Positions 3,423 through 28,493 of a DNA stretch of 31,126 nt are shown here, piece by piece. Both the position numbers and the translations under genes were made by a program. The notes beneath the pieces are model-generated. The model was given only the letters and a program-made list of their open reading frames with translations. It was not told the origin of the DNA and did no database searches. The DNA is from a virus (lineage: Duplodnaviria; Heunggongvirae; Uroviricota; Caudoviricetes): the IMG/VR virus record IMGVR_UViG_2874968258_000011. One strand, given 5' to 3'. Position 1 is the first letter of the stretch, and each line of letters starts with the position of its first letter.

Positions 3423-3486
3423 TATTAGCTCCTTCTGATGCCATTCTATTTCAGGAAGGAGTGTCCGTTAAACTCAGGCTACCTCA

Positions 3487-5950: not shown

Positions 5951-6014
5951 TATTAGCTCCTTCTGATGCCATTCTATTTCAGGAAGGAGTGTCCGTTAAA
6001 CTCAGGCTACCTCA

Positions 6015-6549
6015 TGGCTTCCTCTCTGTTCATCGGCAGATAGCCTATTTCATCCAGGATCAACACCCGGGCATAACTCAGTTGCTGTAGCTGACGCTCC
6101 AGCCGGTTTTCCTGTTTCGCTTTCATCAGTGTCGCGATCAGTCTGTCCAGTGGCATAAACAGTACCCGATGTCCCGCATCCACCGCTTTCACGCCAAGAG
6201 CTATGGCCAGATGAGTTTTTCCGACACCAGGAGGGCCCAGCAGGATCACGTTTTCGCTGCGCTCCACGAACGCCAGACCAGCCAGTTCCCGGACAACCTT
6301 ACGGTCGATGCCCGGCTGGAAGGTAAAGTCGAACTGCTCCAGCGTTTTGACCCACGGCAGACGAGCCTGCTTCAGCCTGGACTCCATACCGCGCTGATGC
6401 CTGCCGTTCCATTCCTGCTGTAGCGCCATGCACAGGAACTCCCGGTAGTTCAGCTCTTTTTTAGCTGCCTGTTCCAGCAGGCTTTCAACGTGATAACTCA
6501 GATGCTCCATTTTCAGGCGACTCAGCAGGACTTCCAGTTCATGCATCAC
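6015..6549 (-). pseudogene. istB: istB N-terminal fragment (Walker A GPPGVGKT present)
   Basis: 180-aa ORF 6007..6549 whose last codons run into IS600. Confidence 0.8.
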
Positions 6550-7718
6550 AACAGCTCCTCATAGGCACTCAGTGGTCGATGTTCCACCTGACTGACCTGC
6601 TGCCAGAGCGGGGCGTGATGCTCCGGCACTGTCTGCCAGCCAGACGATGCTGAACAGAGGCGATGTGAGGCCACCAGTTTCTCATTACTGTAGATCCGCA
6701 ACTCGTCATCCAGCGATATTCGTATCGATACCGGCTGACCACACAGCGCTTCGGGAACGCTGTAACGATTACCACCAACCTCGATATAGCTGTCCCAGGA
6801 CACATGGCGGATATCGAAGTAACTGGTATCGAAGTCTGTATCCGGTAACGGCTGCAGATGTTCCTGCTCCAGCGCGAAGCGCTGTTCCGGCGTTTCTTTG
6901 AACTGGCGAAGCTCCCGTTTGTCAGCCACATCGGCTATCCATTGCTCCAGTTGTTGATTGACATGAGTGAAGCTGTCGAACCTGCGGTACCGGACGAAGA
7001 AGTTCTCCTTGAGGTATTTCACCATCCGCTCAACCTTACCTTTTGTTCTGGCCCTGCGTGGACGGCATGCCCGTGGCAGGAAGTTATAGTGGTCAGCCAG
7101 CAACAGGAATCCGGAGTTGAACACGACTTTCCCGTTGTTATTCTTCAGCACCGCAGCCTTCTGGTTATCAACCAGCACCGTTTTCACACAACCACCGAAG
7201 TAGCGGAAGGCGCGAACCAGTGATTCGTAGGTATGCTCAGCATCCTGTTTTGGTGCGGCGAAGACATGGAAGCTGCGGGAGAACCCCAGCGTATTAACCG
7301 CAAAGTTAACTTTGCACCGTTGCCCGGCAACCTCCACCTCAACTTCGCCCCAGTCATGCTGGAGCTGGTATCCAGGCTGAGTTTCGAAGCGAACTGTTCT
7401 TTTTGACGGACGCATTTTACGTTTGGGCTGGATGTAGTAACGCAGCATGGAACGTCCGCCCGTATAACCCATTGCCTTAATCTCCGCGAAGATAACCTCG
7501 CTATTCCAGACATTCTCTGCCAGGCGCATGTCGATGTAATCCATAAACGGTTTCAGCTTAACCATTTTGTGGCGGGTCTTTCTGGCTGGCGGTTCAGGGT
7601 ATTTGAGGTAGCGTCTGACCGTCCGTTCAGAGCAACCAATCTGAGTCGCAATATCGACGATGTACGCGCCCTGCTGGCGCATTTGCTTTATCATGTAAAA
7701 GTCCTCTCTGCTCAGCAT
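6546..7718 (-). CDS. istA: IS21-family transposase IstA
   Basis: 390-aa ORF with N-terminal HTH, overlapping istB start. Confidence 0.85.
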   Translation of the reverse strand: MLSREDFYMIKQMRQQGAYIVDIATQIGCSERTVRRYLKYPEPPARKTRHKMVKLKPFMDYIDMRLAENVWNSEVIFAEIKAMGYTGGRSMLRYYIQPKRKMRPSKRTVRFETQPGYQLQHDWGEVEVEVAGQRCKVNFAVNTLGFSRSFHVFAAPKQDAEHTYESLVRAFRYFGGCVKTVLVDNQKAAVLKNNNGKVVFNSGFLLLADHYNFLPRACRPRRARTKGKVERMVKYLKENFFVRYRRFDSFTHVNQQLEQWIADVADKRELRQFKETPEQRFALEQEHLQPLPDTDFDTSYFDIRHVSWDSYIEVGGNRYSVPEALCGQPVSIRISLDDELRIYSNEKLVASHRLCSASSGWQTVPEHHAPLWQQVSQVEHRPLSAYEELL

Positions 7719-8096
7719 GTTGATGTCCTTTCTGGTGTGAGAACCTTAAGGAAACAACATGTTGGGTGGAGCGGACAATCCAAATGGCGAATTACCGTCT
7801 TATATCACTGGCGCTGACAAAATCGACACCATAAAAATAAAACCACTGTAATATCAATCCATTACAGTAGTGGTGATGACGAATGAAATTTCAAAAACTA
7901 GCCTTTTTCCGCGCCGCTCCCGCCCCGTGGCAGGCCACCCCACCGGGAGGACCCGTCAGCCTGACAGCCATGACGAACGTCTGATACAGCGCCCTGCATG
8001 AATGACATCGGGATAATCCAGAAAGGAATAGCATCGTACCCACAAGAATCAGTGTAAGTGTCCTGTTTCTTCCACCCCCGCACAGGACTGGCGAGC

Positions 8097-8273
8097 ATGA
8101 GGGACAAACCCGCGAACCATAAACGCGGTAAAAACCCGGTGTGCATCGTTTTTGATTATTCCCGCACACTCGCGCAGAAGGAGTTCCCCGTCGGGCTACG
8201 GTCATGGTTAATACGGGAATACGGCGACGATACAGCGCATGATGTGTCAGGCTTGAATACCTTTATCCGTTAA
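8097..8273 (+). CDS. Hypothetical small protein (moron-like, opposite to lysis genes); start at internal ATG 8097
   Basis: ORF 8058..8273; followed by hairpin 8321-8344; position analogous to bor/ybcW-type genes downstream of Rz. Confidence 0.3.
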   Translation: MRDKPANHKRGKNPVCIVFDYSRTLAQKEFPVGLRSWLIREYGDDTAHDVSGLNTFIR

Positions 8274-8320
8274 AAGGGATATCAGTTAAGTTATCCCGTG
8301 TAGGGTATAAGCCATTATCA

Positions 8321-8348
8321 AAGCCACTCTGTAGGAAGTGGCTTTTGT
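8321..8348 (+). terminator. Candidate intrinsic terminator (stem AAGCCACT/AGTGGCTT then T-rich)
   Basis: 8-bp perfect inverted repeat; weak T-run. Confidence 0.35.
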
Positions 8349-8354
8349 AATGGC

Positions 8355-8380
8355 AATAAAAAGCCCCGCGAATGCGAGGC
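8355..8380 (-). terminator. Candidate intrinsic terminator downstream of Rz (stem GCCUCGC/GCGGGGC with one G-U, then U5)
   Basis: Hairpin plus A5 run on plus strand. Confidence 0.4.
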
Positions 8381-8554
8381 TAAATCCTGGTATTTGTAAT
8401 GACTGGCTCTTATCTCAACGCAGCCCCTTACCGCGCGCAAAATGCTCAATATCAAGCATCAGCAATGAGATGTTTAATCTGGATTCACTCCAGAAGTGAG
8501 CACCACCCTGTCTACAGAGCCAGATGTGAAGGATGATGAGTAAAATTATCGCTA

Positions 8555-9022
8555 TCATCGAAGGCATTGCGTCCTGATGTATTCCTGAAGCGTTCTCAGT
8601 GCTGTTTGGTCGCGGATAATTCCGTCCCGGATACCGAGAACGTTTCGTCCAGCAACTGGAGAGAGTTCGACGGTGGCATCATTGCCCATGCCGGAGGCGC
8701 TGGAGGTTTCGGCTGAGGATGGCACAGGGCATTTTCCTTTGACGAGCACCCGACCACCATTATCAAGCTTGCGCCGAAGAGCATCATTTTCAGCTTTCGC
8801 ATCAGCTAACTCCTTCGTGTATTTAGCATCGAGTGCATCAGCATCACGCTGGCGCTGCTGCATGTCAGTAATGGTTGCGTTCGCCAGCTTCAGTTCTCTT
8901 GCGTTTTTGTCGCGCTGCTCTTTGTAGGTAATGGCGTTATCACGGTAATGATTAACAGCCCATGACAGGCGGACGATGATGCAGATAACCAGAGCGGAGA
9001 TAATCGCGGTGACTCTGCTCAT
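8555..9022 (-). CDS. Rz: Spanin inner-membrane subunit Rz
   Basis: [17 protein letters not shown]…[11 protein letters not shown]… resembles lambda/P21 Rz; start overlaps R stop (ATGA). Confidence 0.9.
8596..8802 (-). CDS. Rz1: Spanin outer-membrane lipoprotein Rz1, embedded in +1 frame of Rz
   Basis: ORF with lipobox VVGC and proline-rich stretch [11 protein letters not shown], wholly inside Rz. Confidence 0.8.
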
Positions 9023-9516
9023 TGCTGCCCCCACAAACAGACTTCACGCTCAATCTCACGACGGGTCATCAGCCCTTTCCATTGCTTACCGCCAGCATAT
9101 GTCCAGCGACGTAGCTGGTCACATGCGCCTTTGATATAGCCCTGGTTTATTTTGCGAAGAAGCGTCGATGTTCTGAAATTGCCAGCGCCCACGTTGTAAA
9201 CGAACGAGTAAAGAGCGCCGCGCGTTGTTTCCGGTATATCGACTTTGATGTACGGGTTAATTTGTCTGGCGACAGTGGCAAGGTCTTTATTCAGGAGAGC
9301 TTTGCATTCTGCTTCGGTATACGTTTTACCAGGCATGATGTCTTTTCCGGTGTGTCCGTGACATACAGTCCATACACCAATGATATCTTTGTATGGTATG
9401 TAGCTGACACCTTCCAGACCATCGTTACCACCTGGGCCAGTGATTAACACAGATGCTATAGCAACAGCCCCGCCACCAATAGCAACTGCAACAGCCTTGC
9501 GTAATGATGGCGACAT
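9019..9516 (-). CDS. R: SAR endolysin (phage lysozyme R, P21 type)
   Basis: 165-aa ORF; N-terminal Gly/Ala-rich signal-anchor-release segment; lysozyme-like body. Confidence 0.9.
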
Positions 9517-9731
9517 TATTCACCTCTCGCAGCCTTACGCTTATCTTCTCTTATTTTGAAATACAGATTCGTCAGATAAGTCAGAAGCCCCAGAAGCAGA
9601 CTTCCCAGCACACCAATCGCAGCCCACTGTGATGGACTGACCTGATCCAACCACTGCAAAAACCAGTAGCCGGCACTGCCGGCGGAGGTGCCGTAGGCAA
9701 TGCCCGTTGAAATTTTGTCCATGGATTTCAT
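9516..9731 (-). CDS. S: Pinholin S (P21 type), dual-start motif MKSM
   Basis: 71-aa [31 protein letters not shown]…; GGAGG RBS; ORF-track start at 9893 is an upstream extension into IS600. Confidence 0.85.
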
Positions 9732-9908
9732 AGCCTCACCTCCGCAAATAACGGATGGCGTAGTTTTACACTGAGAAATGAAAGGGATTTGAAAAGAAAA
9801 AAACGCAAAAGCGGGCGAAACGATATATACAGTAAGGAAAGCACTGAGGTAGCCTGAGTTTAACGGACACTCCTTCCTAAAATAGAATGGCATCAGAAGG
9901 AGCTAATA

Positions 9909-10211
9909 ATGAGCAGAAAAACCCAACGTTACTCTAAAGAGTTCAAAGCCGAAGCTGTCAGAACGGTTCCTGAAAATCAACTTTCGATCAGTGAAGGCGC
10001 TTCCCGATTATCTCTTCCTGAAGGCACTTTAGGACAATGGGTTACCGCCGCCAGAAAAGGGCTCGGTACTCCTGGTTCCCGCACGGTGGCTGAACTGGAA
10101 TCTGAAATTCTGCAACTGCGTAAGGCGTTAAATGAAGCTCGCCTTGAGCGAGATATATTAAAAAAAGCAACAGCGTATTTTGCACAGGAGTCGCTGAAAA
10201 ATACGCGTTAA
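9909..10211 (+). CDS. IS600 OrfA (P variant at residue 21)
   Basis: 100-aa ORF. Confidence 0.9.
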   Translation: MSRKTQRYSKEFKAEAVRTVPENQLSISEGASRLSLPEGTLGQWVTAARKGLGTPGSRTVAELESEILQLRKALNEARLERDILKKATAYFAQESLKNTR

Positions 10212-10302
10212 TCGAACAATGGCGACAACAATTTCCCATTGAAGCGATGTGTCAGGTATTTGGTGTATCCAGGAGCGGTTATTACAACTGGGTATGAAGT
10301 GG

Positions 10303-11471
<1,169 letters not shown>

Positions 11472-12542
11472 TGGAGCACCTGTGTTGTTCTGAGGTGAGC
11501 ATATCACCTCTGTTCAGGTGGCCAAATTCAGTGTGCCACTTCAGTACAGCATGAACCCTCAGACAGAAAACAAAGTGATGAGCGGCTAAAACTGGAGATT
11601 AAGGTGGCACATATCCGCACTCGCGAAACATATGGAACCCGGCGGCTCCAGACGGAGCTGGCAGAGAATGGCATCATCGTTGGTCGTGACCGACTGGCAC
11701 GTCTTCGTAAGGAGCTAAGGCTACGCTGTAAGCAGAAACGCAAGTTCAGAGCGACTACGAACTCGAACCACAATCTGCCAGTTGCGCCAAATCTGCTGAA
11801 CCAGACGTTCGCTCCTACAGCACCAAATCAGGTCTGGGTGGCGGACCTGACGTATGTTGCCACACAGGAGGGATGGTTGTACCTCGCTGGCATCAAAGAT
11901 GTTTATACGTGCGAAATTGTCGGCTACGCCATGGGAGAGCGCATGACAAAAGAGCTGACAGGTAAAGCCCTGTTTATGGCGCTCAGGAGCCAGCGCCCAC
12001 CTGCCGGGCTAATCCACCACTCTGATCGAGGTTCACAGTACTGCGCATACGATTACCGGGTCATACAGGAGCAGTCTGGTCTGAAAACATCAATGTCGCG
12101 TAAAGGTAACTGTTACGACAACGCTCCGATGGAAAGCTTCTGGGGAACGCTGAAAAATGAGAGCCTGAGCCACTATCGTTTTAATAACCGGGATGAAGCC
12201 ATCTCAGTAATACGGGAATACATTGAGATTTTCTACAATCGTCAGCGTCGTCACTCTCGTCTGGGGAATATCTCCCCGGCAGCCTTCAGGGAAAAATATC
12301 ATCAGATGGCTGCTTAAAAAAAGAACAAATGGTAGTGTCCGCTATTGCCAGTACACCTCACACTCTATCCAACAAACCACCCACAGTTAATCGGAATAAA
12401 AGCAGAGTGCTTATGAATGATCGCACGCCCGAAGGTTAGTATTTCTGCACAGCAATTTTGCAAAAAAAGGCGATCATTCATAACTTAAACGTCTTTCAGT
12501 CACTCCGGGATTTCCCATCATCGCAGACTGAAAGACTCTGAC

Positions 12543-12617
<75 letters not shown>

Positions 12618-12620
12618 ATA

Positions 12621-12696
<76 letters not shown>

Positions 12697-12698
12697 GC

Positions 12699-12775
12699 TG
12701 GCCCACCACCGAGGACTCGAACCTCGCACCGTCAACTTAGAAGGTTGATGCTCTATCCGGATGAGCTAGTGGTGG
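12699..12775 (-). tRNA. tRNA-Arg (anticodon UCU); unusual C1:G72
   Basis: Acceptor CCACCAC/GTGGTGG, anticodon loop CTTCTAA, T-arm CGAGGTTCGAGTCCTCG, CCA. Confidence 0.75.
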
Positions 12776-12776
12776 T

Positions 12777-12853
12777 TGGTGGCCCTTGCTGGACTTGAAC
12801 CAGCGACCTGGCGATTATGAGTCGCTCGCTCTGACCAACTGAGCTAAAGGGCC
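12777..12853 (-). tRNA. tRNA with CAU anticodon, ileX-like (Ile2/lysidine type; elongator Met not excluded)
   Basis: GGCCCTTTAGCTCAG…GACTCATAATCGCC…GGTTCAAGTCCAGCAAGGGCCACCA. Confidence 0.75.
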
Positions 12854-12940
12854 GGAGGCAGAATAATAACCATATGTCATCACATCTGCAAACTCATCTG
12901 ACCACCAGCACGTTTAACGTCCTGTGCCGTTTTTCAGGTA

Positions 12941-12966
12941 TAAAAAAACCCGCATAAAGCGGGCTC
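12941..12966 (-). terminator. Intrinsic terminator between Q-like gene and tRNA cluster (candidate tR')
   Basis: Minus strand stem CCCGC, loop UUUAU, stem GCGGG, then U7. Confidence 0.55.
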
Positions 12967-13042
12967 TTTCAAATGTCCATGTCTGCTATTCGCCTCGCGG
13001 TACAGCTTTGCGAAGCGTACAAGAATTGAAGCAGTTTTTACG

Positions 13043-13597
13043 TCAAAAAGCAATAACTTTTTTCTCTATACCAAAAGCCATAACCATTGGTTTGTACAAA
13101 ATAAATTCTGCCACCTTTAGCCAATGCTCAATGCGTCTTTCACAGGTTCTTAAACTCCATTTCGGGTGTGCATCATTCAGCAGTTCAGCCATTTTGCGTT
13201 TGGTCATCCCCCGCCCCTCATACCGTTGCCGAAGGACGCTAATCAATCCTGGATGCTCTGCCAGCACCTCACTTATGACCCGATCAATACATAACGCCTC
13301 TGCATCAGTACAATGCGCCAGCCAGCTCTTTTGCTTACCGTTAATCATATCCCGCAAAAAAGCCTCAAGTTCAGACTTGTTCAGACCTGCTTTTTTCATC
13401 CTCCGGAGCGCCTCGTTAATTGCCGTTTTTGTCAGCTTTTTAGAGGTCAACATCAGGTTAAACATATTCCCCGTCTTACCGCCACCAATATACGACCAGC
13501 GCCCCCACATACGTAGTTTTCCCTGAATCCAGACACTTTCCAGCGTGGTGAGACGAAGGTGTTCTCCGCTTTTTCCTGTATTCGTTGGGTAAATCAT
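13043..13597 (-). CDS. Putative late antiterminator (Q-like)
   Basis: 184-aa ORF from internal ATG with AGGAGG RBS; positioned immediately upstream of terminator, tRNAs and lysis genes; family not verified. Confidence 0.5.
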   Translation of the reverse strand: MIYPTNTGKSGEHLRLTTLESVWIQGKLRMWGRWSYIGGGKTGNMFNLMLTSKKLTKTAINEALRRMKKAGLNKSELEAFLRDMINGKQKSWLAHCTDAEALCIDRVISEVLAEHPGLISVLRQRYEGRGMTKRKMAELLNDAHPKWSLRTCERRIEHWLKVAEFILYKPMVMAFGIEKKVIAF

Positions 13598-13884
13598 AAA
13601 TATCCCTCCTTTCTCCAGATTTCTTGTGTGCGAAAAACACCTTCTGCATGCATCAGGCGTAATTCTTCTTTGGTGTAATCGCTGGTTTTTACCCGCCCGT
13701 CGATTAAATCGTGGCACGAGCTACAGGCAATCGCTGCCTGCATATCGTGTGGCTTTATCGCTGTTCCGCACGTTCCCGCCAGTCGGTAATGCGCCAGCAC
13801 AGACGTTTCCGGATCGTGATTGCAGTAGCCAGGAATTCTGACGGTGCACATCTGCCCCCGCGCCGCTTTACGTAAATCCACCAT
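13594..13884 (-). CDS. ybcO: YbcO-like (DUF1364) putative nuclease
   Basis: 96-aa ORF MVDLRKAARGQMCTVRIPGYCN…ETSVLAH…; Cys-rich. Confidence 0.7.
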   Translation of the reverse strand: MVDLRKAARGQMCTVRIPGYCNHDPETSVLAHYRLAGTCGTAIKPHDMQAAIACSSCHDLIDGRVKTSDYTKEELRLMHAEGVFRTQEIWRKEGYL

Positions 13885-14483
13885 TACGCAAACTCCAGCA
13901 GCTGCGCGGCCACATTTTCGACTTGTTCCGGAGAGGAAAATTTACGGAACAGAATCCAGTTCCACAGCACATTCAGAACAGATTTATAAACCTGCTGAAA
14001 CTCGGTTTCGTCCATATTCGCAAAAGCGATGGATTTTGCCCGACGCCCGCGGCTACCGTCCGGATAAAAATGTTCGGTGTAAAATCCAGCCTGAATGGTT
14101 ACCCACTCGCGAAAAGCCTCAAACGACTTTAGCAATGCCGTATCCCGGGTTCTGCGTGTCGCAACTGTATTCAGATATTGCTCTGCGGCTTCGCTCAGAG
14201 CTGGCGTATGTTCCCGACCTACTGATTCGCACAGGTAATCAACGAAACCAGACAGCAGTTCTCGTTCGCGAGGCGTGATCGCCCCACCGACCGGAGTCCA
14301 GTAATCGAATCCCAGTTGCAGGAGTTTGAAAAAACGCTTGTGGAATGCGTAGTTACGCACACGCTTAAAGTCTGCGTGTATCCACTCACCTGTTTTGATT
14401 TGATGCAGAAAATCGCAACTCTCCGGCGTCGCCGGGAGAAGTAATCCGGAAGAGGTTTGTTTGATCAGTTGTATATGCGCCAT
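13884..14483 (-). CDS. Hypothetical prophage nin-region protein (DUF1367-like)
   Basis: 199-aa ORF with GGAGA RBS; translationally coupled to downstream ybcO-like gene. Confidence 0.55.
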   Translation of the reverse strand: MAHIQLIKQTSSGLLLPATPESCDFLHQIKTGEWIHADFKRVRNYAFHKRFFKLLQLGFDYWTPVGGAITPRERELLSGFVDYLCESVGREHTPALSEAAEQYLNTVATRRTRDTALLKSFEAFREWVTIQAGFYTEHFYPDGSRGRRAKSIAFANMDETEFQQVYKSVLNVLWNWILFRKFSSPEQVENVAAQLLEFA

Positions 14484-14554
14484 CGTAGTTCTCCGCTGGC
14501 GCAGTAGAATGGGTGTTCAGCCCGTTATGTAGTATACCAGAATTAATGCCAATA

Positions 14555-14767
14555 CTAACAGGATGCTCTGACTCGCAATTCATCCAGCAGTTTATCATTT
14601 CCCATAATGTCACTTACCCTCATCGGTAAAAAAATTGCCTTTCGACCATTACGATACATCATTGATTTTTTGGTTTCAGGGAAGTAATCCATTTCGACTA
14701 TAACTGACAGGTCATCACGACGTATGACTGCGTATTTACTACTAAATAGTTTCTTTATTTTTTCCAC
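14555..14767 (-). CDS. Hypothetical small ORF (GTG start), AT-rich
   Basis: 70-aa ORF only; no recognisable family. Confidence 0.2.
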   Translation of the reverse strand: MEKIKKLFSSKYAVIRRDDLSVIVEMDYFPETKKSMMYRNGRKAIFLPMRVSDIMGNDKLLDELRVRASC

Positions 14768-15678: not shown

Positions 15679-15834
15679 TTACTCTCTAGATTCGTAGTCT
15701 ACGAAAACAGCGACCTCCGTCTGGCCGATTCGGATTCGTACCTCGCAGAGGTCTTTCCTCGTTACCAGTGCCGTCACAATGACGGTTAAACAGATGACGA
15801 TCAGGGCGATTAACATCGCCTTTTGCTGCTTCAT
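15679..15834 (-). CDS. hok: Hok/Gef-family type I toxin (51 aa)
   Basis: MKQQKAMLIALIVICLTVIVTALVTRKDLCEVRIRIGQTEVAVFVDYESRE closely resembles Gef/HokC; AGGAG RBS; ORF-track entry 15679..15891 is an upstream extension. Confidence 0.85.
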   Translation of the reverse strand: MKQQKAMLIALIVICLTVIVTALVTRKDLCEVRIRIGQTEVAVFVDYESRE

Positions 15835-16172
15835 AGCCTGCTTCTCCTTGCCTTTCGGCACGTAAGAGGCTAACCTACATTTGTGAGACATAGATTGGGC
15901 CTCAGATTAATGTTAAGCGTCTTGCAGGACGCGTAATGTTAACTGGGGCTTTTCTCTGTCTGCCTTACAGTGACATACCCGAGGCAGACAGCCTCAAGCA
16001 CCCGCAGCAATCTTACCGACACCGATAAGAAAACGCTATTTTTTATTGCCAGCACCATCTATCCAGGCTAGTTTATCTGCGTCAGAACGGCGCAATGCGC
16101 TCGCCTGAGATACGTTTACTTGCCATGGTAACAACAGGTAACGGCAATTGCTGTTTCTGTTTTGTTTCCTTC

Positions 16173-27647: not shown

Positions 27648-28493
27648 ATGTTGAATGTAGCTATTGAAAACCAGAACGGGTGGAATTATAGTGCACCTGC
27701 ACCTCATAAAACGGGTGCCGGGATTGCTACCCCGAAGTCATTCACGGCGCATAACCGCGCTCAGGCGGTTTTTTTATGCGTAATGCACAGCCACATTCAA
27801 ATTATGGTGGGGCGTGCGGGGCAGTCGCAAGACTGGCCGGGTTCCGTGATGACCGGTTGTAGCAACCCTGTACGTCTCACCACCCATGAGATTGCTACCT
27901 CCGGTGGTGAGTTAATCAAATTCATCGCGGAGGCTGCCATCATGGCTACTACCCTTTCTCACCCTTGTGTAACCGTAGAAAACGGTCGCGCTGTCACTAC
28001 GTCTGTTGCGGTTGCAGAGTTCTTCCACAAACGACACGACAATGTGTTACGTGCCATCGCAAATATTGAATGCTCAGATAAATTTACTGCCCTCAATTTT
28101 GAAGCGAGCGAATACACCGACTCAATCGGGCGCAAACTCCCAATGTACCAAATCACCAAAAACGGCTTCGTTTTCCTGGTTATGGGCTTCACTGGCAAAA
28201 AAGCCGCTGCATTCAAAGAAGCCTACATTGCTGAGTTCGACCGCATGGAGGCCGAACTGCGCCAGAATAACACCCCACCTGCTGACAAGATGATTCCGGG
28301 TGATGGTCGCACTCTGGTTGTTCACTTCGACAAATTCGGCAATGTCGAATTCACCGAAACCGTTCCTGATGGCGCACTGGTCTGTACCCTGGAGACTTTC
28401 CGGTTTTATCTGGAAAAACAGGGATGGACTCTTGTTAACCGGGGCGCAATTAAAAATATGACTGTGGAACAATTACTCAAAATTCATTGTTGA
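27648..28493 (+). CDS. Rha-family phage regulatory protein / antirepressor-like; alternative internal start at 27942
   Basis: Rha-like segment VTVENGRAVTTSVAVAEFFHKRHDNVLRAI begins near residue 105; both 27648 and 27942 ATGs have RBS. Confidence 0.5.
   Translation: MLNVAIENQNGWNYSAPAPHKTGAGIATPKSFTAHNRAQAVFLCVMHSHIQIMVGRAGQSQDWPGSVMTGCSNPVRLTTHEIATSGGELIKFIAEAAIMATTLSHPCVTVENGRAVTTSVAVAEFFHKRHDNVLRAIANIECSDKFTALNFEASEYTDSIGRKLPMYQITKNGFVFLVMGFTGKKAAAFKEAYIAEFDRMEAELRQNNTPPADKMIPGDGRTLVVHFDKFGNVEFTETVPDGALVCTLETFRFYLEKQGWTLVNRGAIKNMTVEQLLKIHC

Follow-up and report, generated by a model that had tools for sequence, protein, structure and literature searches.

The combination of a pinholin, a signal-anchor-release (SAR) endolysin and embedded spanin genes is a textbook lysis system that is already known, and the locus described here is of this type. 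In phage 21 (OL657228.1), the S gene is annotated with two products, the antiholin S21-71 and the holin S21-68, and the same two forms are described in a review. A cassette of this type, essD-rrrD-rzpD/rzoD, also persists in the cryptic prophage DLP12 of E. coli K-12. Experimental evidence indicates that the DLP12 cassette can be expressed and that it influences vesicles and biofilm (PMC7918800, PMC12287860); the Shigella sonnei copy is known by sequence. Closely related spanins occur in HK620, where their partners are an S of the lambda type and an R that is not a SAR endolysin. Finally, in the Stx phage phi467 (LN997803), PhiR47_1 and vB_EcoS-689R5 the tRNA-Thr/Gly-leader-S-R segment is collinear with ours and 92-98% identical. 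Unlike our locus, these three are complete phage records that lack the insertion sequences (IS) found here, and they serve as the empty site in the comparisons below.

The window (the whole stretch of DNA that was analysed, 31,126 nucleotides) is a defective lambdoid prophage in the S. sonnei chromosome, with 12 IS copies in 31 kb. It matches S. sonnei 53G (HE616528) and is 100% identical to locus L003 over 8.6 kb. Prophages full of IS are a hallmark of Shigella. The list of open reading frames places S, R, Rz and Rz1 all within 8555-9731, as the original prediction had it, and assigns them to the minus strand.

9739..9743, minus strand: Shine-Dalgarno sequence GGAGG of S, 7 nt 5' of Met1
9516..9731, minus strand: S, class II (pinholin-type) holin, 71 aa, starting MKSMDK (open reading frame; PF04971, 1e-35)
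9019..9516, minus strand: R, SAR endolysin (GH24 lysozyme), 165 aa (PF00959, 9e-45)
8555..9022, minus strand: Rz, i-spanin, 155 aa (PF03245, 3e-30)
8596..8802, minus strand: Rz1, o-spanin lipoprotein precursor, 68 aa (PF06085, 4e-21)
8415-8567: hydrophobic open reading frame, 50 aa
8362..8381, minus strand: terminator-like hairpin and T-run, downstream of Rz and the 50-aa hydrophobic frame

The matches to the Pfam profiles Phage_holin_2_1, Phage_lysozyme, Phage_lysis and Rz1 reached 121.8 (cut-off 26), 152.5, 105.6 and 75 bits, respectively, and these four scores are so far beyond the curated cut-offs that chance matches are excluded. A search of NCBIfam with S, Rz, Rz1 and Q gave no family at cut-off. 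Gene calls for identical copies of the cassette already exist in public S. sonnei genomes, and in close relatives the genes bear the names holin, lysozyme RrrD and lysis protein. The hairpin at 8362..8381 likely marks the end of the lysis transcription unit; phage Ayreon has an annotated terminator at the corresponding position.

Gene order is the same as in phage 21, and so are the overlaps of the R start codon with the S stop codon (TAATG) and of the Rz start codon with the R stop codon (ATGA). The designation as a phage-21-type cassette holds for S (96% identity) and R (94%) but not for the C-terminal halves of Rz and Rz1, which are of the HK620/P22 type. The module is a mosaic of familiar components: a phage-21/DLP12-type pinholin S, the matching R21-type SAR endolysin and an embedded two-component spanin with interacting C-terminal halves of the HK620/P22 type. 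Likeness to DLP12 is seen in S (87% identical to EssD) as well as in R, which matches RrrD (4zpu) over its full length at 1e-106.

Features of the lysis proteins

The prediction that MKSM provides two starts, as in holin/antiholin pairs, agrees with what is present in S, namely Met1 and Met4 with Lys2 between them; phage 21 S begins with the same MKSM. By analogy, the 71-aa product from Met1 would be the antiholin form and translation from Met4 (ATG 9720-9722) would give the 68-aa holin form, Lys2 being the extra positive charge of the longer form. Phage 21 and phi467 share the ribosome-binding site, and the nucleotide context at the dual start is conserved with phage 21. TMD1 (residues 8-27; mean hydropathy 0.16; 60% G/A/S/T) is identical to that of S21. 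TMD2 has a mean hydropathy of 1.53, and its G40, S44 and G48 are identical in phage 21 and invariant in the alignment. The three substitutions relative to phage 21 (V46L, F49L and R64K) are all common alleles among 80 IMG/VR relatives, and positions 46, 49 and 64 of S21 are not mentioned in a mutational/nanopore paper on the pinholin. A 125-aa open reading frame (9516-9893), in which S is extended into IS600, lacks a Shine-Dalgarno sequence and was judged to be a chance open frame.

The claim that R has an N-terminal SAR segment was corroborated, since hardly any residue of the segment differs from R21, a protein of known structure (3HDE/3HDF). It spans approximately residues 8-26, consists to 58% of G/A/S/T, has a hydropathy of 2.22 (2.11 in R21) and differs from R21 only by P2S, A11V and I18V. 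The match of R to 3hde, like 3hdf found at 1e-106, is full length and includes this segment. The catalytic residues E35, D44 and T50 (Glu-8aa-Asp-5aa-Thr) are the same as in phage 21 and invariant in the relatives. Not all family-invariant residues are retained, however, because Y127 replaces an aspartate that is present in 120 of 120 homologue clusters and is thus as invariant as the catalytic D44 and T50. Among IMG/VR and phage relatives, 81 of 83 have aspartate at this position, and it is also kept, within the motif GD(Y/I)xGA, in solved lysozymes of only ~40% identity (9kbs, 9kbq). The R genes of the nearest relatives differ from ours by D127Y and one or two synonymous changes only; copy L037 has two further non-synonymous and zero synonymous changes.

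In comparison with HK620, identity over the full length amounts to 96% for Rz and 97% for Rz1 (for Rz1, to the embedded open reading frame, likewise of 68 aa), whereas identity to phage 21 is 65% in the C-terminal half of Rz and 47% in Rz1, which there are of another allele type. Rz1 is moreover 100% identical in at least 8 IMG/VR relatives. It was correctly placed wholly inside Rz in the +1 frame, since (9022-8802) mod 3 = 1, and phage 21 Rz1 is embedded in the same frame. A listed 159-aa frame with a GTG start is merely an upstream extension of Rz. The predicted lipobox of Rz1 (VVG|C19) would leave a mature part of 50 aa that is proline-rich (8 Pro), and the periplasmic cysteines, Cys98 and Cys153 in Rz and C27 in Rz1, occupy the same positions in HK620. 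The N-terminal TMD of Rz (approximately residues 4-23) has a hydropathy of 2.35 with Arg18 included. Position 18 is cysteine in HK620 and in 76 of 79 relatives and arginine in two of the 79; Arg18 cuts the uninterrupted hydrophobic run to 14 residues.

The cassette, described as intact in the original prediction, is therefore intact as a set of open reading frames but carries D127Y at an invariant position of R and C18R in the TMD of Rz, both of which distinguish it from phage 21. Inactivating substitutions in S or R had been named as evidence against the prediction; D127Y, which may inactivate R, comes close to one, and the alleles of S are common ones. The lineage-specific, non-conservative changes D127Y and C18R look like first signs of relaxed constraint. 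One R allele is retained in two S. sonnei prophages, and the R Y127 and Rz R18 alleles occur in two or three different S. sonnei prophage contexts, so that they could be tolerated. An open reading frame should not be equated with a working gene where the endolysin bears a radical change at an invariant residue.

If the genes were expressed, S68 would, by analogy with the phage-21 system, build up in the inner membrane and its TMD1 would exit. Heptameric pinholes would then collapse the proton-motive force, and this collapse would release and activate the membrane-tethered endolysin. Pinholins of this class make openings of about 2 nm, which depolarise the membrane without letting a cytoplasmic endolysin out. 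As the last step, Rz-Rz1 would fuse the inner and outer membranes.

The late leader and its IS600::IS911 insertion

The sequence upstream of S, on which the supposed separation from the late promoter depends, was resolved into the following elements.

9732..9844, minus strand: proximal remnant of the late leader, from IS600 to S, 113 bp
9845..10294, plus strand: left 450 bp of IS600 (IRL, orfA), delimited by comparison (self-BLAST) with the window's five full-length copies of 1264 bp
10295..11543, minus strand: IS911 inside IS600, 1249 bp
11544..12360, plus strand: right 817 bp of IS600 (rest of orfB, IRR)
12361..12363: CAC, 3-bp target-site duplication of IS600 (other copy 9842-9844)
12364..12542, minus strand: distal late leader, containing two long hairpins
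12543..12853, minus strand: phage tRNA cluster Met(cat), Arg(tct), Thr(tgt), Gly(tcc) (ARAGORN, Rfam)
12941..12971, minus strand: strong intrinsic, tR'-like terminator with a 13-bp stem and U-run, downstream of Q
12989..13053, minus strand: conserved ~60-bp block that spans the Q stop codon and continues beyond it
13043..13597, minus strand: Q-type late antiterminator gene, 184 aa, full length

IS600 and IS911 were thus mapped just upstream of S, where they had been predicted, and the gap between IS600 and S measures 113 bp instead of 114. The whole IS600 (9845-12360, split by IS911) has the ends TGAGGT...ACCTCA, contains orfA and orfB and matches the IS600 annotated on S. sonnei plasmids at 100% identity. 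Removal of the IS together with one CAC restores an unbroken alignment with phi467 over the junction, which shows a simple insertion; the 113-bp remnant has a single mismatch to phi467. IS911, like IS600 a member of the IS3 family, has the terminal repeats TGAAGTGG, is 99.9% identical to annotated IS911 and is flanked by a GTA duplication (10292-10294 and 11544-11546). It is transcribed in the same direction as S, and it is not found at this site in loci L008 and L010, that is, in some S. sonnei strains. IS600 entered the untranslated late leader first, and IS911 inserted into IS600 later, in some strains.

Beyond the insertion, the arrangement resembles that of phage 21 in having tRNA genes between pR' (presumed here) with its terminator and S, although the tRNA set is different and phage 21 has no IS600::IS911 in its leader. 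Q belongs to the DUF1133/Phage_antitermQ type (PF06576, 4e-107; PF06530, 28.4 bits, cut-off 26), aligns over its full length and is annotated as antitermination protein Q in related phages. The Q of phage 21 is of a different family, and only a faint N-terminal match to the Q21 structures 6p18/6jnx was obtained (E = 4e-4). DLP12 likewise has ybcN/ybcO-type genes upstream of Q, while its Q is QuuD and not of the DUF1133 type. The ~60-bp block is mostly 100% identical across phages with a diverged Q C-terminus and hence is better conserved than that C-terminus. From its conservation and position, the block is presumed to be the pR'/Q-utilisation module. Candidate hexamers within it, -35 TTGCTT (13048-13053) and -10 TTCAAT (13025-13030) with a 17-bp spacer, are weak and lack the -11 A; a consensus promoter scan missed them and gave no good sigma-70 match in the block. 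In relatives, a hairpin and T-run of different sequence stand at the place of the terminator. The distal leader is conserved in 689R5, PhiR47_1 and phi467 and is 79% identical in HK639, and the region 12361-12545 folds with z = -4.0. A known RNA element such as a put-like antiterminator, considered on account of the HK639 match, was rejected since Rfam at its gathering thresholds reported tRNAs only.

The predicted separation from the late promoter is physically real, because Q, the ~60-bp block, the terminator and the four tRNAs all lie beyond IS600. An insert of 2.5 kb does not imply that the genes are orphaned. RNA polymerase modified by Q resists terminators over many kb, antitermination being processive, and normally transcribes through inserts of this kind. 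A late-leader IS alone does not orphan Q-controlled genes. The DLP12 cassette also has an IS, namely IS5 in nmpC, between its Q gene (quuD) and essD, and PMC7918800 cites earlier work that places this cassette under Q control.

The suggestion that an outward promoter at the IS600 end drives S was not borne out. The promoter scan gave no consensus sigma-70 site facing S in 9732-12360, and of the two IS only IS911 is co-directional with S. The IS600 end nearest to S is the left end; the sole site there (9860-9888, plus strand) points away from S, and the best -35 found by eye at the junction matches only 2/6. An RpoE-type promoter as reported for DLP12 was also rejected, as GAACTT-N15-17-TCNAA has 0 matches in the window; the leader before essD is unrelated in sequence. 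By eye, the IRR of IS911 was found to contain an outward TTGACC (10300-10305), followed at 17-bp spacing by TGT-AATAAC. On the S-sense strand, the IS contain only weak terminator-like sites with poor T-runs.

Present state of the cassette

The prophage is defective in several respects: IS600 interrupts an O-like gene, the gene for the large terminase is cut at 3486 and the structural genes are missing. Within the early operon, two IS1 and two IS600 copies separate the replication genes from Q, which lies downstream of them. The immunity region resembles that of Rac, and a 139-aa candidate repressor matched HTH families only and no protease domain in the family search, which makes SOS induction doubtful. 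S. sonnei is a very young clone, and open frames are for this reason the null expectation and no evidence of selection; the integrity of open reading frames is uninformative on selection in a clone as young as this. Insertion of an IS into a leader of ~0.8 kb is unremarkable as well, given 12 IS in 31 kb.

Taken together, we consider the locus, with a probability of roughly 0.8, to be the lysis module of a defective prophage for which Q-antitermination from upstream of the IS is the strong route into S, and which is probably silent or nearly so, its frames remaining open through the youth of the clone. Q-antiterminated transcription would then be the only strong route into S, and because Q lies behind four IS copies in a prophage that lacks structural genes, there is most likely little or no expression of the cassette. 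Some expression is possible, since Q-modified polymerase could cross the IS and IS911 is transcribed in the direction of S. Dependence on Q might also mean that the genes are still wired to the late promoter as a Q-dependent suicide switch, with read-through of tR', the tRNAs and the 2.5-kb IS600::IS911. Such wiring fits the full-length Q, the intact Q-proximal block and terminator, the undisturbed leader, ribosome-binding site and dual start of S, the well-established processivity of Q antitermination and the weakness of terminator-like sites within the IS in the S sense, as well as the IS5/nmpC at the same position in DLP12 with the Q control cited for it. We nevertheless regard this wiring as unlikely, because Q may never be made downstream of two IS1 and two IS600, the Rac-like immunity and the repressor would make SOS induction doubtful, and the substitutions D127Y in R and C18R in Rz may weaken lysis. 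The same two substitutions could have ended function at the protein level, D127Y inactivating or destabilising the endolysin and C18R blocking i-spanin anchoring, so that S would depolarise the cell without lysis. Here the invariance of D127 down to lysozymes of ~40% identity, the radical replacement by tyrosine, the shortened hydrophobic run of Rz and the restriction of both alleles to S. sonnei copies have to be set against the non-catalytic role of D127, the many substitutions tolerated by lysozymes of this fold, the ability of a TMD to accommodate an arginine near its periplasmic end, and lysis under shear, which needs no spanins; on balance such protein-level death appears unlikely. The locus has little significance beyond annotation.

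Host use of the cassette would be a different outcome. Low transcription from IS911 or a host stress promoter might serve mild peptidoglycan remodelling or vesicle release, a role proposed for DLP12 in E. coli K-12, with the R and Rz alleles as attenuating adaptations; IS911 could contribute the promoter of its transposase or, with the outward -35 at its right end, a hybrid promoter. IS911 does face S and offers the TTGACC/TGT-AATAAC pair, one R allele is common to two S. sonnei prophages, physiological roles and regulation are reported for essD-rrrD-rzpD/rzoD of DLP12 (PMC7918800, PMC12287860), and a genomics paper speculates that rrrD helps S. sonnei to persist. Such domestication is nonetheless very unlikely: IS911 is missing at the site in L008 and L010, neither of the key T residues is present in the hybrid -10, which the promoter scan missed, the RpoE-type motif is absent from a window whose leader is unlike that of DLP12, and the IS in the leader is unremarkable. 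Proof of expression would place the cassette beside DLP12 as a second case of a lysis module in a cryptic prophage with a role in the host. An stx locus was considered because phi467, the best collinear phage, has stxAB upstream and because stx of S. dysenteriae is flanked by IS600, and was rejected, as the window lacks stx and Q, the terminator and the tRNAs follow directly beyond the IS. A further proposal, that two attenuated S. sonnei cassettes (R-Y127, Rz-R18), uncoupled independently by IS, form a domesticated low-output system for autolysis or vesiculation, in which the IS hits and the alleles are adaptive and the drive may come from IS read-out or stress, strikes us as highly improbable. 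On this view IS600 at our locus and, in the second prophage, an IS911 in a tRNA-Met gene would each have uncoupled the cassette from its Q/pR' module.

Anatomy and affinities of the lysis cassette

The minus-strand genes at 8555-9731 form a lysis cassette of the phage 21/DLP12 type with HK620-type spanins, located in a defective Shigella sonnei prophage and carrying IS600 and IS911 in its late leader (DLP12 is the cryptic prophage of E. coli K-12 that holds essD, rrrD and rzpD/rzoD). The original prediction was a correct reading of an ordinary, textbook kind of object: public genomes already contain calls of identical genes, and annotations of close relatives in E. coli and phages read class II holin, lysozyme RrrD and lysis protein. 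Added here are the proof of a simple insertion, the location of the Q/terminator module, a caution that the IS elements alone do not orphan Q-dependent genes, and two substitutions, R D127Y and Rz C18R, that qualify the term "intact". The features of the cassette are as follows.

9516-9731, minus strand: S, pinholin-type holin, 71 aa, N-terminus MKSMDK (ORF listing and direct reading)
9019-9516, minus strand: R, SAR endolysin, 165 aa (ORF listing and direct reading)
8555-9022, minus strand: Rz, i-spanin, 155 aa; the listed 159-aa GTG ORF is the same frame extended upstream
8596-8802, minus strand: Rz1, o-spanin, 68 aa, wholly within Rz in the +1 frame
8362-8381, minus strand: strong terminator-like hairpin, downstream of a 50-aa ORF (8415-8567)

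The predicted span corresponded exactly to the extent of the four genes, and the MKSM start of S and the embedding of Rz1 in Rz were both recovered. GGAGG lies 7 nt upstream of Met1 of S. S and R overlap in TAATG and R and Rz in ATGA, compact junctions typical of such cassettes. All four products scored far above the curated cut-offs of the expected Pfam families (S, PF04971, 1e-35; R, PF00959, 9e-45; Rz, PF03245, 3e-30; Rz1, PF06085, 4e-21), which confirmed the cassette and excluded a chance pattern. The four frames are full length in comparison with their phage counterparts.

The annotation of phage 21 comprises the antiholin S21-71, the holin S21-68, a SAR endolysin, i-spanin and o-spanin as well as pR', Q-binding elements and a terminator. 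S is 96% identical to S21 and differs by V46L, F49L and R64K, changes that leave TMD1, the loop joining the two TMDs and the G40/S44/G48 face of TMD2 unaltered. Among 80 related viral contigs the variant residues were common alleles (L46 in 38/82, L49 in 72/82 and K64 in 74/82). R is 94% identical to R21 and retains E35, D44 and T50. Its whole length is matched (about 1e-106) by structures of RrrD (4zpu) and of R21, solved both complete (3hde) and lacking the SAR segment (3hdf). The 19-residue N-terminal segment of R consists of 58% Gly/Ala/Ser/Thr, and its hydrophobicity is barely above that of R21. Together with the full-length match to 3hde, these properties make the predicted signal-anchor-release assignment as good as sequence alone permits. 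In the phage 21 mechanism, a dual-start antiholin/holin forms pinholes, the SAR endolysin is released depending on the PMF, and spanins fuse the membranes (PMC9636201; also established knowledge); by analogy, the cassette of the window would act in the same way.

The spanins are mosaic: Rz resembles phage 21 over its first ~80 residues, but its C-terminal half and Rz1 are unlike phage 21, and overall identity to phage 21 is 65% for Rz and 47% for Rz1. In contrast, HK620/P22-like phages match both proteins over full length (96% and 97% identity, respectively, in HK620), and an identical Rz1 (100%) occurs in at least eight viral contigs. Rz1 carries a lipobox (VVG|C19) and Cys27, and its mature part is proline-rich; Rz has the periplasmic cysteines Cys98 and Cys153.

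Two further minus-strand frames touch the cassette. The S frame continues open across the leader and reaches an ATG at 9893 in the left end of IS600, giving a 125-aa ORF (9516-9893) with a hydrophobic N-terminal extension and without a Shine-Dalgarno sequence. The frame is probably open by chance; a translation product would resemble an antiholin with a blocked N-terminus. The very hydrophobic 50-aa ORF at 8415-8567 overlaps the Rz stop, is a gene call in public annotations and is kept in the phages Ayreon and Kati.

The IS600::IS911 insertion and expression of the cassette

As predicted, S is physically parted from the late-promoter region: IS600::IS911 lies between S and the Q/terminator/tRNA module, 113 bp upstream of S (114 bp in the original prediction).

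9842-9844 and 12361-12363: CAC duplication flanking IS600
9845-12360: IS600, left end and orfA adjoining S
10295-11543: IS911 within IS600, with a GTA duplication
12941-12971, minus strand: strong intrinsic terminator; relatives have another sequence in the same place
13043-13597, minus strand: Q-type antiterminator, full length

In silico removal of the IS elements and one CAC copy restored an unbroken alignment, from tRNA-Thr through S and R, to phi467, a collinear Stx phage without the IS elements; the 113 bp remaining beside S differ from phi467 by one base. IS600 thus entered the untranslated late leader by clean transposition, with no rearrangement and nothing removed. The distance from the Q stop to the S start is 3311 bp with the IS elements and ~790 bp without them.

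The minus-strand order of Q, a ~60-bp block, the terminator, four tRNA genes and a structured leader corresponds to the Q-pR'-tR'-tRNA-S layout annotated in phage 21. The ~60-bp block is almost invariant (mostly 100%) across phages with diverged Q C-termini. A consensus promoter scan of this conserved region gave no match, and the best pR' candidate, TTGCTT-17-TTCAAT (13053-13025), is a weak one. From tRNA-Gly to the IS600 insertion site, the leader (12361-12545, minus strand) forms a pair of long, near-perfect hairpins (-61 kcal/mol, z = -4.0). Several phages conserve this segment, HK639 among them at 79% identity, and it matched no family in Rfam. The first tRNA of the cluster (12777-12853, minus strand) has a CAT anticodon and was called Met, an uncertain identity; its Stx-phage counterparts are annotated as Ile (ileZ-type).

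The suggestions that the insertion orphaned the cassette, or that outward promoters of the IS elements drive it, both proved weak. Lambdoid late transcription depends on Q, which renders RNA polymerase terminator-resistant over long distances, so that a 2.5-kb insert need not block transcription of S. On the S-sense strand of the two IS elements, every terminator-like site is poor. A precedent is the same type of cassette in DLP12, where IS5/nmpC lies between quuD and essD. According to earlier work cited in PMC7918800, Q, RpoE and Hha control the DLP12 cassette; PMC7918800 itself reports effects on vesicle production, and PMC12287860 reports SOS-linked up-regulation of essD, rrrD and rzoD. 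In the IS elements and the junction, no consensus promoter facing S was found, and the window contained no RpoE-type motif. The IS600 end beside the leader is its left end, and the promoter-like site there is directed away from S. IS911 is oriented toward S and its right end carries an outward TTGACC with 17-bp spacing to a poor TGT-AATAAC; a hybrid promoter driving S from this end would be speculative, and IS911 is absent from this site in two of the compared loci (L008 and L010). The practical obstacle to expression more likely lies upstream: in the early operon, two IS1 and two IS600 copies precede Q, and the immunity region is Rac-like. We infer that, in ordinary conditions, the cassette is expressed barely or not at all. 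A role as a domesticated, attenuated autolysis or vesiculation module is improbable.

Substitutions in R and Rz

The cassette had been called intact. This holds for its open, full-length ORFs and is qualified by two radical, lineage-specific substitutions.

9136-9138, minus strand: codon 127 of R, D127Y
8969-8971, minus strand: codon 18 of Rz, C18R

Asp occupies position 127 of R in 81/83 close relatives and in 120/120 homologue cluster representatives (down to 77% identity), an invariance equal to that of D44 and T50, and is kept in solved lysozymes only ~40% identical, within the motif GD(Y/I)xGA. The nearest relatives (L016-L018 and L036) differ from R of the window by D127Y and 1-2 synonymous substitutions, and D127Y is therefore recent and derived. 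Position 18 of Rz is Cys in 76 of 79 relatives; the Arg of the window lies within the membrane anchor and leaves an uninterrupted hydrophobic run of 14 residues. Every locus found with the exact R protein as query, all of them S. sonnei-type sequence and a second prophage among them, carries both substitutions. The changes come close to the condition set as refuting the original prediction, inactivating substitutions in S or R, with D127Y as a candidate; S has only its common alleles. R of locus L037 has two further non-synonymous and zero synonymous changes, and the substitution pattern, based on small numbers, is more consistent with relaxed constraint than with purifying selection. S. sonnei arose only a few centuries ago, and well under one substitution is expected in the 1.2-kb region over that time; open frames are therefore uninformative on selection.

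Prophage setting and related loci

The window as a whole is a degraded lambdoid prophage. From the right end, an integrase fragment is followed by a Rac-like immunity/replication region (HTH repressor, YdaT-, YdaU-, YdaV- and YdaW-like genes), an HNH gene and a DUF551 gene, and then by DUF1367, YbcO, Q, the lysis genes, the small terminase, a truncated large terminase and a tail-fibre assembly fragment. Self-comparison of the window revealed six IS600, three IS1 and one IS911 copies, and Pfam domains and locus comparison added a truncated IS21-family element and an IS630-family transposase gene; the identities of IS600 and IS911 were confirmed against annotated records. This IS density is extreme for 31 kb, and several prophage genes are cut, including an O-like gene (23254), a DUF977 gene (20364) and the large terminase (3486). 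Since the prophage carries ~1 IS per 2.6 kb, an IS in the 0.8-kb leader is statistically unremarkable.

Look-up of the exact R protein revealed chromosomes with the same locus, among them HE616528.1 (S. sonnei 53G in papers), and L003 (CP032523.1) is 100% identical to 6000-14600 of the window. All copies of this locus, that of lineage II strain 53G included, have the IS600 upstream of S; among S. sonnei loci, IS911 at this site and the downstream IS21-family element (6015-7818) are polymorphic. The second prophage (L007; CP061367.1 4135386-4147883; 3922-5800) encodes the same R protein and an S of 96% identity starting with MYQME, which has a dual Met and lacks Lys2. It carries an independent IS911 insertion between Q and S, 6 nt before the tRNA-Met 3' end. 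Another locus (L005) joins the IS600-S junction of the window to the downstream genes of the second prophage, a composite structure that is evidence of recombination through the lysis genes common to both.

Two RNA loci were also detected with Rfam. A full-length sok antitoxin RNA (RF01794, 118 bits) at 15829-16003 (minus strand) implies that a hok/sok toxin-antitoxin module lies there, with an IS1 copy on one side and the DUF551 gene on the other. At 27699-27887 (plus strand), isrK (RF01394) lies beside a C4 antisense RNA (RF01695) in the 5' part of an ORF (27648-28493) that encodes Ash and Rha domains; the arrangement resembles a c4-icd-ant immunity module of the P1/P7/Gifsy type within the lambdoid remnant.
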